Part shown: in pieces, positions 36,968 to 40,227 of the stretch
Layout of the letters: every line of letters starts with the position of its first letter
Numbering within the stretch: the first letter of the stretch is position 1
DNA from: a phage
Sequence record: PZ386965.1
Length of the DNA: 64,000 bases
Reading direction: 5' to 3' (one strand)
Notes under the pieces: model-generated
What the model was told of the DNA's origin: nothing
Database searches by the model: none
The model's input: the letters and a program-made list of their open reading frames with translations, nothing else
Made by a program: the position numbers and the translations under genes

Positions 36968-37212
36968 TAGTATTTTTCCTCTGGTTGAAATACCGCACGA
37001 CAAGCCCACATACTAGCTTCCTTTAGGCGTTCTTTAGCACAGTTCAATTGGGACAAAGCCGTCAGAGCTTCAGGAGTATTTGCTGATAATGCTTCTTCTG
37101 CCAGGGCGTCTAGAATAAGTCCTAAACGAACTTCGGCATCTTTAATAGCGTTCACTTTACCGATTTTATCATCGGTATGCGGCTTGTAGCCTTTGATGTC
37201 TTCAATCGACAT
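36967..37212 (-). CDS. small helical protein (vs.4 position; possible Acb2-like sponge)
   Basis: 81-aa ORF with coupled start; position only. Confidence 0.4.
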
Positions 37213-37426
37213 AAGGAATTTCCTCATCTGTGGCAAGGTCATATTCGACCAATTGGATAGGCTCATTAATACCATATCCACGTACAGTGATATCAGTTGT
37301 CGGATAGTTTCCAGTAATATCACCCATTCTAAATGCTTCAATGAATGATTGCTCGCCTGAGCAACTAAACCAGGCGGCAAAACATTTTAAAACATCTTCA
37401 GACCCTTCTATAATCAATTTAGTCAT
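37202..37426 (-). CDS. hypothetical protein (vs.x)
   Basis: 74-aa ORF. Confidence 0.45.
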   Translation of the reverse strand: MTKLIIEGSEDVLKCFAAWFSCSGEQSFIEAFRMGDITGNYPTTDITVRGYGINEPIQLVEYDLATDEEIPYVD

Positions 37427-37788
37427 TATAGACTCTCGGTAAAGGTACGAGCGATAACGTCGCGCTGCTGTTCCGGAGTCAGAGAGTTAAAGCGAACTGC
37501 ATAACCGGATACACGGATGGTCAGCTGCGGATATTTTTCCGGATGCTTAACTGCATCTTCCAGAGTTTCACGACGCAGAACGTTAACGTTCAGGTGCTGA
37601 CCACCTTCAATTTTAACTTTAGGTTGATGTTCAATTTCAATTTCACGAGCATTCAAACCGTAGAAAATTTCTGGATCTACAATAGCGTCTTCTTTAAAAG
37701 TCTTAGAGACAATAATCCGGGCTTGAGTACCGTCTTCAAAATAAATAGTGCCTTTATGTTCACCTTCAAGAATTTGATATGCTTTCAT
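37426..37788 (-). CDS. autonomous glycyl radical cofactor (GrcA/YfiD-like)
   Basis: C-terminal glycyl radical motif RVSGYAVRF in ...[60 protein letters not shown]. Confidence 0.9.
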
Positions 37789-37794
37789 ATAACC

Positions 37795-38103
37795 TCAATT
37801 AGAAAATAAATTTATCCAAGTTTTTTCTTTAATCAAAAATGGGTCGGAATTAAACGCCATTAAACTTTGGGTGATTAATCCTTTAAATGGCCCATCAATA
37901 AATTCCATTTTGAAATGCGGAATACTAGTCATCAACCGTGCATTAGGAGCGGTACAAAGAACCTGCTGCCCTGCGAACGGACCTTTAGTCAAACGGTATC
38001 GTTTAGGTTTAAAATGGTAAATCTCATAATTTTCTACAAGTGCCCTTTTATTGCATACTGGACTGTTATAACAATATTCAAAAACTTCAATAGTTGTCAT
38101 CAT
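37795..38103 (-). CDS. hypothetical protein (vs.x)
   Basis: ATGA-coupled start. Confidence 0.45.
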   Translation of the reverse strand: MMTTIEVFEYCYNSPVCNKRALVENYEIYHFKPKRYRLTKGPFAGQQVLCTAPNARLMTSIPHFKMEFIDGPFKGLITQSLMAFNSDPFLIKEKTWINLFSN

Positions 38104-38639
38104 TGCATTCCAATCACAAAAAATTGAGGACGAGCAATACCACCGATGCAATATTTGCTTTTGCAACAGTGTTGGACTGTTTTAATATGGATGTCGTAAA
38201 TCTTATCCATATCAGGAGCTTTAATAGGCTCGTCAATTATGTACAGAATACGAGAAAGTGTTAATCCACGGAATTTATGTCCTTCATTACCAATAAAACT
38301 ACGGACAGAATCAGTAAATAAACGGAATCGAATATCATCGCTAGAATATCGAGAAAATTCTTTTTCAATGTTGCCAGCAGAAATTTTAGCATAAGCTGAA
38401 GTATTAGAAAGAACAATAACCGTTCCGCCATCATACAACCAATTAGCAGCAAAATTAGTCACAGCAATTGATTTACCTGATTGTCGGCCGCCGTCTAAAC
38501 GAAGTGTACAGTACTGCTTGAGTACGTCTTCAAATGGTGGGACATAACCGTTCTTACAAATTTCTTCTACTCTAGCATCAGAATGGTGTGTAAAAGCATT
38601 CATCAGGGATAGATAAGGTCCAGTTAAAAATGTTCTCAT
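38100..38639 (-). CDS. P-loop-containing hypothetical protein (vs.x)
   Basis: GGRQSGKS Walker-A-like. Confidence 0.5.
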   Translation of the reverse strand: MRTFLTGPYLSLMNAFTHHSDARVEEICKNGYVPPFEDVLKQYCTLRLDGGRQSGKSIAVTNFAANWLYDGGTVIVLSNTSAYAKISAGNIEKEFSRYSSDDIRFRLFTDSVRSFIGNEGHKFRGLTLSRILYIIDEPIKAPDMDKIYDIHIKTVQHCCKSKYCIGGIARPQFFVIGMQ

Positions 38640-38811
38640 ATTATTTCTCTTAAGGTTTGGGCCATTCCGTGGCACATGTTAGGTCCTTCGACTCGCTATG
38701 TAAACCCATTACCGCATTGCGCTCGACCTTATTACAGGTTGGAAAAGGTACATCACTCAGAGGACTCGACGTTCATGAGGAGAGGTTGCGTTTCCCTTTA
38801 TTAGGCAAGAA

Positions 38812-39141
38812 TTATACTCTAGGCTTTTGAGCTTGTTTGGTATTGGATTCCCATGCGGCTTTGGTAATTTTGTTAGCGGCATAACCAAAGGCATTAGATA
38901 GAACACCTTTAGAGTTGAATACATCCAATCCAATAAGTACACCGGCTGCGTTAAATTTAGGAGCAAAGTACGCATTAGTTTTAGAAAGAGCTTTTTTCAA
39001 TTCAGGGTCTTGAACCAAGCCATCAAAAACGCCTTTACTATTTACTTTATATGTTACTTTGGGATTCTTACCTTCTTCGATAGCAGCTTTCTGTTCCGCA
39101 GATAATGTAACTTCAGTGATAAACTCCTGATATGTTTTCAT
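38812..39141 (-). CDS. internal head protein (capsid-targeting MKTYQEF N-terminus)
   Basis: MKTYQEFITE start like T4 IP capsid targeting sequence. Confidence 0.7.
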   Translation of the reverse strand: MKTYQEFITEVTLSAEQKAAIEEGKNPKVTYKVNSKGVFDGLVQDPELKKALSKTNAYFAPKFNAAGVLIGLDVFNSKGVLSNAFGYAANKITKAAWESNTKQAQKPRV

Positions 39142-39166: not shown

Positions 39167-39481
39167 TTATTCTTTAGGGAAGTTTTTAGAGTATGCATCA
39201 TAAAGTTTATTACCAATACGACGGAAGACTTTAGCTGCAAAACGGTTTTCAGGGTTTTTAATCATGATTTGCATCATGTAAGTTCCTGCATCCGAAAGAG
39301 CTTCTTCATAGTACCCATTAATTTCTTTAAGAGTCCTACGTTTACCACCAGGACCGTCAACAGTAATTTTCCATTTACCTGTAGAAGTGCGGCTCGGTGG
39401 CTCAACTTGTTCAATCCAAATATAACCACCTTCAACGCGTTGGTTGGCGGATTCTGCAATAAATTCTTTATACGTTTTCAT
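39167..39481 (-). CDS. internal head protein (capsid-targeting N-terminus)
   Basis: MKTYKEFIAE start. Confidence 0.7.
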   Translation of the reverse strand: MKTYKEFIAESANQRVEGGYIWIEQVEPPSRTSTGKWKITVDGPGGKRRTLKEINGYYEEALSDAGTYMMQIMIKNPENRFAAKVFRRIGNKLYDAYSKNFPKE

Positions 39482-39545: not shown

Positions 39546-39806
39546 TTAAGCTTTACCTCCAGAAATAATTCCGAAGTTGTTAAAATCGTATCCAATATCG
39601 TCAACATCTACTTTAGGACTTACTACAACATAAGCAATTTCACTACGTTTTGCATAGGTGTTGATTTCTTTACCATCGCCACCTAAGAAAGAATACCCAT
39701 TACGTTTTAATGAGCCAAAGTCTTCCGCATCACCAATGAAAGCTTTAACTTTAAATTTGGGGTCTTTGGCATCTGCTTCAATGATAAATTCTTGATACAT
39801 TTTCAT
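39546..39806 (-). CDS. internal head protein (capsid-targeting N-terminus)
   Basis: MKMYQEFIIE start with AAGGA RBS. Confidence 0.6.
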   Translation of the reverse strand: MKMYQEFIIEADAKDPKFKVKAFIGDAEDFGSLKRNGYSFLGGDGKEINTYAKRSEIAYVVVSPKVDVDDIGYDFNNFGIISGGKA

Positions 39807-39813
39807 TTTTTCC

Positions 39814-40227
39814 TTAGTAAATTGATTTACCATAGTATTTGTACCAAGACGGCCGTTGAGCAATTTTTTCATCTAAGCGTGCTTGACTTATCGCAATGGA
39901 CGCTTCGGACGGGACGTAATTATTACGAAATTCTACAGGAATGTCGGAAATATCCTGGACAGTCGTGTCCTTGATTTTGAAACCACGTTTCAAGCATTCA
40001 GCGATTAGCTCGATTTGACGTAAACGTAAAAATTCGAGTTTGTCGTAAAAGAATGTTACGTGACCTGTGCCTAAGATAAATGTTGGAGAGATTTTAAAAT
40101 CCTTTACACGTTTACCGTTTTGAACATGTTTACGGACTGCACCAAATACGCGTGGTAATTCACGATACTCGGCCATAAGATGTTGGTCGGCCAGTTCAGA
40201 AACAAGTGTTAAATTGATACGGGTCAT
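39814..40227 (-). CDS. denV: pyrimidine dimer DNA glycosylase DenV (endonuclease V)
   Basis: [34 protein letters not shown] collinear with T4 DenV; 137 aa. Confidence 0.95.

Follow-up and report, generated by a model that had tools for sequence, protein, structure and literature searches.

In 2005, Zeidner and colleagues reportedly documented intragenic recombination between the cyanophage and host copies of psbA and psbD. The exchange between cyanophage and host psbA and psbD was first noticed as patchiness of G+C content (Sullivan et al. 2006, PMC1484495), and its detection relied on composition together with recombination tests (PMC1484495). Earlier work on the T4 gene vs.6 concerns its protein product. 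The phage protein Y06I and the bacterial protein YfiD are both activated by the PFL-activating enzyme and restore the activity of oxygen-cleaved pyruvate formate-lyase (Wagner et al. 2001, as summarized in PMC8683613); the statement of the initial annotation that T4 carries a spare-part cofactor of this kind is correct according to the same source. The function of the vs.6 product is therefore already known, in the sense that the biochemistry comes from T4 Y06I and would extend to the protein described here by homology. The literature searched for vs.6 gave no description of mosaic DNA or of host-to-phage conversion, though an earlier remark on the nucleotide identity may exist: vs.6 appears only as a conserved Gly_radical ORF in Nolan et al. 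2006, its mosaic is not mentioned in Petrov et al. 2010, and the biochemical papers treat the spare-part protein only and not its mosaic DNA.

We analyzed a stretch of 64,000 nt from sequence record PZ386965.1, here called the window, which originates from a Mosigvirus. An ORF of 120 aa on its minus strand (Table 1) is predicted to encode the phage autonomous glycyl-radical cofactor, a homologue of GrcA and the vs.6/Y06I "spare-part" protein. The translated sequence matches the Pfam family PF01228 (Gly_radical) with 67.3 bits, against a gathering cut-off of 22.2, over residues 59-101, and the GrcA structure PDB 6owr with E = 2e-42. The ORF with the motif RVSGYAVRF named in the initial annotation is present, with the motif at codons 92-100, where it aligns with GrcA and with residues 696-759 of PflB. 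The same annotation proposed a C-terminal match of ~60 residues to GrcA/YfiD, and all 60 C-terminal residues (EGGQH...FTESL) are indeed identical to those of E. coli GrcA. Large glycyl-radical enzymes match the window protein over their last 55-65 residues only; the window protein, with its 120 aa, belongs to the small stand-alone type (a family of ~14 kDa) that has the radical domain and no catalytic barrel. The N-terminal half has 35% identity to GrcA across 40 residues. Because of this divergence the whole window protein, at 159.1 bits, stays below the cut-off of 170 of the NCBIfam equivalog TIGR04365 (spare_glycyl), a model made for bacterial GrcA. Two observations concern the database entries of these families. 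An Enterobacteriaceae-type GrcA (L112, cluster member P0010) is labelled "Vagococcus sp. WN89Y" and shares a 90% cluster with Klebsiella GrcA; the genome label is probably wrong or the assembly contaminated. Several viral-labelled IMG/VR contigs (L072-L081) contain full-length pflB-type C-termini in ORFs of 155-264 aa ending in ...FTQSM, and look like bacterial pflB fragments, not phage genes.

The position of the gene agrees with this assignment. The window vs.6 is flanked by denV and the regB/vs genes, which is the place of vs.6 in T4, and sits between the vs.7 and vs.5 positions with the same neighbours as in T4 and IME537. The gene is 99.7% identical to that of the Mosigvirus Shigella phage SSE1, and ~93% identical at the nucleotide level to Tequatrovirus vs.6 over the full gene length. 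Its TAA overlaps the ATG of the downstream ORF by one base. Other small ORFs occur in the same part of the window. Three of them lie in tandem on the minus strand (38812..39141, 39167..39481 and 39546..39872) and have the motif MK(T/M)YQEFI in common, with different bodies; the first two begin with MKTYQEFITE and MKTYKEFIAE, and in the third MKMYQEFIIE is internal, at a later Met of the ORF as listed. The motif resembles the capsid-targeting sequence of the T4 internal proteins IPI, IPII and IPIII, whose genes adjoin denV in T4. The ORF at 38100..38675 on the minus strand, listed with 191 aa and a GTG start and annotated in SSE1 as a hypothetical gene of 540 nt, contains the P-loop-like stretch LDGGRQSGKSIAV.

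Table 1. Features of the vs.6 locus in the window (positions in the 64,000-nt stretch)
Feature	Position	Strand	Basis
Downstream gene, vs.5 position, phage-type flank	37202..37426	-	ORF list; no E. coli match
vs.6 / Y06I-type gene (predicted), 120 aa	37426..37788	-	ORF list; Pfam; structure match; orthology
Phage-type 3' tail: third base of codon 117, codons 118-120, stop	37426..37438	-	codon comparison
Host-derived patch, from codon 60 (second base) to codon 117 (second base), entire glycyl-radical domain	37439..37610	-	exact E. coli grcA match, 172 nt
Glycyl-radical motif RVSGYAVRF, codons 92-100	37489..37515	-	translation; GrcA and PflB structure alignment
Radical glycine, codon 95	37504..37506	-	within RVSGYAVRF
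Phage-type 5' part, codons 1-59 and first base of codon 60	37611..37788	-	GC 0.331, GC3 0.18
Upstream gene, vs.7 position, phage-type flank	37795..38103	-	SSE1 annotation mapped; GC 0.34; no E. coli match

The patch is identical to the O157:H7-type grcA allele (L243) at 172 of 172 nt, and shares an exact run of 158 nt with the grcA allele of strain 1190. Mismatches to E. coli grcA number 106 in the 180 nt of the 5' part and two in 171 nt of the patch (Fisher p = 1.4e-37). On the 5' side the transition is abrupt and falls at 37611/37610, between the first and the second base of codon 60. At the other end, the phage-type tail is mismatched to host grcA at three of nine nt (p = 8e-4 compared with the patch): codons 117-120 (37429..37440) read ACC GAG AGT CTA in the window and ACT GAA AGC CTG in the host, each difference being synonymous. 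The GAG, AGT and CTA codons at the 3' end, as well as an AAA codon just 5' of the patch, are common to the distant homologues of RB16 and L019, which have no host-identical tract, and therefore represent ancestral phage sequence. The composition changes along with the identity. The step in GC content claimed by the initial annotation is real: GC is non-uniform across the gene and rises from 0.331 in the 5' part to 0.500 in the patch, which alone among the 172-nt stretches of the 64 kb attains 0.50 (window mean per 172-nt stretch 0.371, sd 0.038). The GC3 of the patch (0.46) is close to that of host grcA (0.42), compared with 0.18 in the 5' part. Megablast of the whole window against 5,426 complete E. 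coli genomes returned a single match, at 37426..37610, and no other host-like DNA in the 64 kb. The patch is almost certainly of host origin, from E. coli grcA, and the host-derived DNA is an internal tract enclosed by phage-type sequence; the end of the gene was not replaced. Of the earlier proposal that the C-terminus had been swapped from the host, the recent conversion from host grcA is supported; the extent needs correction, as the patch is internal and the tract stops short of the stop codon.

The identity of the protein domain is not the cause of the nucleotide identity. The vs.6 homologue of phage RB16 (L014) encodes the 60 C-terminal residues unchanged, with DNA that is only 83% identical to that of E. 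coli, which rules out amino-acid conservation as an explanation. Over the 57-codon patch (171 nt), dS to E. coli is 0.0 for T4 and 0.023-0.048 for the window, depending on the E. coli allele, compared with 0.38 between E. coli and Citrobacter, 1.13 between E. coli and Salmonella, and 1.58 between RB16 and E. coli. The divergence of the patch from E. coli is a within-species distance. The initial annotation had named nucleotide identity no higher than expected from amino-acid conservation as grounds against its proposal; the identity found is far beyond that level (dS 0.02-0.05, versus 1.58 for RB16).

The mosaic is not private to the window phage. With the last 186 nt of E. coli grcA as a query, a patch of at least 95% identity is found in 639 phage records, most of them named as Escherichia or Shigella phages and some as Yersinia, Salmonella, Citrobacter or Hafnia phages. 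We read 16 coliphage alleles and five E. coli alleles base by base; the former included Mosigvirus alleles from the window, SSE1, Av-05, L004 and WFL6982, and Tequatrovirus alleles from T4, OES_C-2, IME537, L005, L006, ZN18 and L008. All 16 share one 5' boundary, and their 3' boundaries almost coincide. Comparison among related phages, which the first reading of the sequence had suggested, thus reveals a defined and common 5' breakpoint. The 3' ends of T4 (GAA AGT TTG) and OES_C-2, which is host-type save for its GAG (GAG AGC CTG), differ, and the 3' boundary of the patch therefore varies between phages. The vs.6 gene of Escherichia phage OES_C-2 (L247) is 357 nt long, not 363, and the sequence just 5' of its patch is unlike that of other Tequatroviruses. 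In steps of 60 nt, identity between the window and T4 is 0.92, 0.85 and 0.88 in the 5' part, 0.98 and 1.00 in the patch, and declines from 0.75 to 0.63 in the downstream gene, below the value of the patch. The patch is far less diverged between Mosigvirus and Tequatrovirus than its surroundings are.

The variable sites in the coliphage patches coincide with polymorphisms segregating in E. coli. The window, SSE1 (Mosigvirus) and ZN18 (Tequatrovirus) share CAG at a Gln codon with the O157:H7-type allele, to which the patch of SSE1 is identical at 171 of 171 nt. T4, L004 and L006 show 0 differences from the strain 1190 allele over the 171 nt (57 codons), and L008 has the TCA of the strain 13TMH22 allele. 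IME537 has GTA, GGA and ATT at three linked sites that span 132 nt, and these are found in the allele of strain LH50-c and others; its patch is 98.2% identical to the best E. coli genome and 96.5% to the strain 1190 allele. Parallel mutation could produce the L008 and CAG matches, which are single synonymous sites. Among the three coliphage allele matches, only the IME537 haplotype is hard to ascribe to it: by a rough calculation, in which ~100 synonymous changes are taken as possible in the patch and no more than 50 alleles as tested, the chance that three of the six IME537 differences are the three SNPs of one allele would be ~1e-3 or lower. The alleles of 13TMH22 (L244) and LH50-c (L254) have synonymous A/T-ending codons inside the radical motif, with TCA in place of TCC for the Ser and GGA in place of GGT for the radical Gly, and these states are also seen in L008 and IME537. 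E. coli is the best donor for the coliphages, followed by a separate Escherichia species with 95.6-97.8% identity; Citrobacter gives ~91%. The patch of WFL6982 (Escherichia phage vB_EcoM_WFL6982, L248) contains five private changes, four synonymous and one non-synonymous, that occur in 0 of the 5,426 E. coli genomes; the non-synonymous change turns GAA into GGA at patch codon 46 (PEQQ to PGQQ) in an otherwise invariant domain. With a best identity of 97.1% and no match in these genomes, the WFL6982 changes were rejected as an E. coli allele, and they form the pattern expected of change after conversion. Judged from these alleles, more than one independent host-to-phage event is very likely.

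A patch of the same architecture is present in phages of a different host. Among Jiaodavirus-type Klebsiella phages it is carried by five sequences: JD18, RCIP0102, Merci, AM_K4 and the IMG/VR contig L029. This patch differs from that of the coliphages, is GC-richer (GC3 0.61 in L029) and begins at the same 5' boundary as in coliphages. Bacterial grcA loci from metagenomes share 94-97% identity with it, and E. coli ~85%; the protein of these metagenome loci equals GRCA_KLEP7, the GrcA of the K. pneumoniae complex, exactly. K. pneumoniae grcA is absent among the 80 species-representative loci listed, and its loci come from a metagenome scan with exact protein look-up. They fall into two allele types, L163 and L167, which the phages combine differently. 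JD18 and RCIP0102 have three L167-type SNPs in common; AM_K4 has a different, overlapping trio of L167-type SNPs near the 3' end, the rest of its tract being L163-type. Identity of at least 95% to the L163 allele is found in 106 phage records in total. Together with the coliphage alleles, these sequences are evidence for host-specific conversion in two phage groups and for more than one event in each. Two of the records have peculiarities of their own. In L029 (IMGVR_UViG_2974754850_000001) the vs.6 frame is interrupted, with an open frame of 80 aa through the motif and a tblastn match of 359 nt, by either a frameshift or a sequencing error. In AM_K4 (Klebsiella phage vB_Kpn_AM_K4, L253) the gene adjoins tRNA genes, not vs.5/regB, and the record is 288,685 bp long, other Jiaodavirus-type genomes being ~166 kb, perhaps because the assembly is rearranged or concatenated.

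A Salmonella-type patch is found in no phage: the best identity is 83.8%, and the matches concerned are E. coli-type patches. The RB16-, Slopekvirus- and T5-type homologues have no recent patch either, with 72-87% nucleotide identity to any sampled host. In these homologues the GC3 of the patch lies between 0.19 and 0.46, a spread that may reflect older events drifting to phage composition. Conversion appears, on the sequences compared, to be restricted to certain phage lineages.

We explain these observations by conversion of a patch of vs.6 from host grcA through homologous recombination, repeatedly and in several phage lineages, and give this explanation as a whole a probability of roughly 0.8. 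The recombination mechanism as we propose it is held with moderate confidence. In this proposal vs.6 is an old, diverged phage homologue of bacterial grcA, with N-terminal halves that are still recognisably related, in which the radical-domain segment 37439..37610 has been overwritten from the chromosomal grcA of the infected cell. The limits of the patch would mark the end of usable homology, on the 5' side at the start of GAAGGTGGT and on the 3' side ~10 nt before the stop. Boundaries would be shared among phages because the flanks are non-homologous and exchange is confined to the segment. Up to this point the proposal is based on the sequence comparisons. After a first event the phage would equal its host in the segment, and later conversion would presumably be easier; the segment may then have been re-synchronised to current host alleles, gaining private changes between events. 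Recombination in T4 is highly active and can use short stretches of homology. The recombination functions of the phage itself (UvsX/UvsY and gp46/47) may act on the host fragments that arise from chromosome breakdown. For the protein, the effect would be neutral or mildly beneficial, with a domain kept matched to the local GrcA for PflA and cleaved PflB. A benefit is not required, because RB16 keeps the same protein without conversion.

Exchange may also run in the opposite direction. If so, some of the E. coli and Klebsiella grcA SNPs would have come from phage copies, and host and phage would draw on a shared pool; such traffic would be an addition to the main explanation and not an alternative, and we regard it as rather unlikely. 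All four host states shared with IME537 and L008 (GTA, GGA, ATT and TCA) end in A or T, which is the direction of mutation expected in an AT-rich phage genome, and psbA is transferred both ways in cyanophages (PMC1484495). However, a GC-to-AT bias is general in bacteria, and survivors of lytic infection are rare. For the patch as a whole the direction would be from host to phage, because the patch has host codon usage, tracks host phylogeny and lies between phage-type flanks. A bolder form of the idea, which we offer tentatively and likewise think unlikely, if slightly less so, is that vs.6 and grcA constitute one continuously exchanging gene pool over the 170-nt segment, with the segment reset to each new host population, the spare part staying matched to the local PflA/PflB, and phage changes returning occasionally to the bacteria. 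If true, virulent T-even phages would routinely recombine with the chromosome of the dying cell, and vs.6 would be a natural reporter of the rate of two-way exchange between host and phage in the wild.

Less probable again is that a shared ancestor of Tequatrovirus and Mosigvirus underwent one conversion or capture, which was then inherited vertically, with the shared SNPs as parallel mutations. The common boundaries of the 16 coliphage alleles are in keeping with a single event, as is the fact that most shared variants are single third-position changes; identical boundaries, however, are expected anyway if conversion is limited to the homologous segment. Vertical inheritance also fails to reconcile a patch that is 98-100% identical across genera with adjoining coding DNA of 63-92% identity, and a single event in this ancestor accounts neither for the linked three-SNP haplotype by which IME537 matches one E. 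coli allele, nor for Klebsiella phages with the same architecture, a Klebsiella donor and mosaics of two host alleles. A marginally poorer candidate is that one or few host-to-phage events were followed by spread and homogenisation of the patch through recombination among T-even phages, which occurs at high frequency in mixed infections. The CAG/CAA polymorphism is present in both phage genera, and the single 5' boundary in coliphages would also fit; but the coincidence with alleles segregating in E. coli and the presence of Klebsiella alleles in Klebsiella phages would be left unexplained. Recombination between phages probably adds to host-to-phage conversion.

Two further explanations are so improbable as to be negligible. 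Selection on the nucleotide sequence (codon usage or mRNA structure) of an anciently captured gene, with no recent exchange, is compatible with grcA codons typical of highly expressed host genes and with the strong protein-level constraint of 60 of 60 residues, but in RB16-type phages, some of them isolated on E. coli, the 60 residues are unchanged and the synonymous divergence is saturated (dS 1.58), a dS of 1.13 separates the grcA genes of E. coli and Salmonella, and SNPs specific to host strains would not arise from such selection. An assembly or contamination artefact, in which host reads were merged into a phage contig, could be suspected from the identity of the patch to DNA of the usual propagation host, which is no specific support, but the junctions are in frame within one ORF, the same structure recurs in 639 independently sequenced phage records including T4, and the phage-type tail 3' of the patch runs directly into phage genes.

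The textbook case of virulent phages that shut down and degrade the host chromosome, and whose own DNA is chemically distinct from it, is T4 with its relatives. Copying from the host is unexpected in phages that destroy host DNA, and the allele-resolved, apparently repeated signature of conversion from grcA indicates that in nature these phages still use chromosomal DNA as a template for recombination. The locus is compact and measurable, with 170 nt between phage-specific primer sites, and could be used to quantify the exchange, to learn how far it depends on the recombination genes of the phage and to find the minimal homology. It also calls for caution, in that a phage protein identical to that of the host is not proof of one recent capture. 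It illustrates how an auxiliary metabolic gene may remain matched to its host after host shifts, as in E. coli and Klebsiella. For annotation, the vs.6 patch is the one stretch of these phage genomes in which a short match identical to the host is genuine and not contamination.

Compared with the described systems, the window vs.6 resembles T4 Y06I and GrcA in its gene position, shared with the T4 gene, its Gly_radical domain and radical motif, and its GrcA-identical C-terminus, and differs from GrcA in the diverged N-terminal half that keeps it below the equivalog cut-off. With the RB16-, Slopekvirus- and T5-type proteins it shares the family and the conserved C-terminal domain, which in RB16 is identical over 60 residues. 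The closest known parallel to vs.6 conversion is cyanophage psbA. As in cyanophage psbA and psbD, a host metabolic gene is borne by a phage, has patchy G+C content and exchanges segments with the host copies. The differences are that the hosts of vs.6 phages are Enterobacteriaceae, that the patch is one defined segment of ~170 nt with fixed boundaries, and that its donor identity reaches 100%, so that host alleles within one species are recognisable. T-even phages, in contrast to cyanophages, are virulent, degrade the host DNA and modify their own cytosines. Conversion of vs.6 is in this respect a new instance of a process already described elsewhere, in a gene whose protein function was known beforehand.
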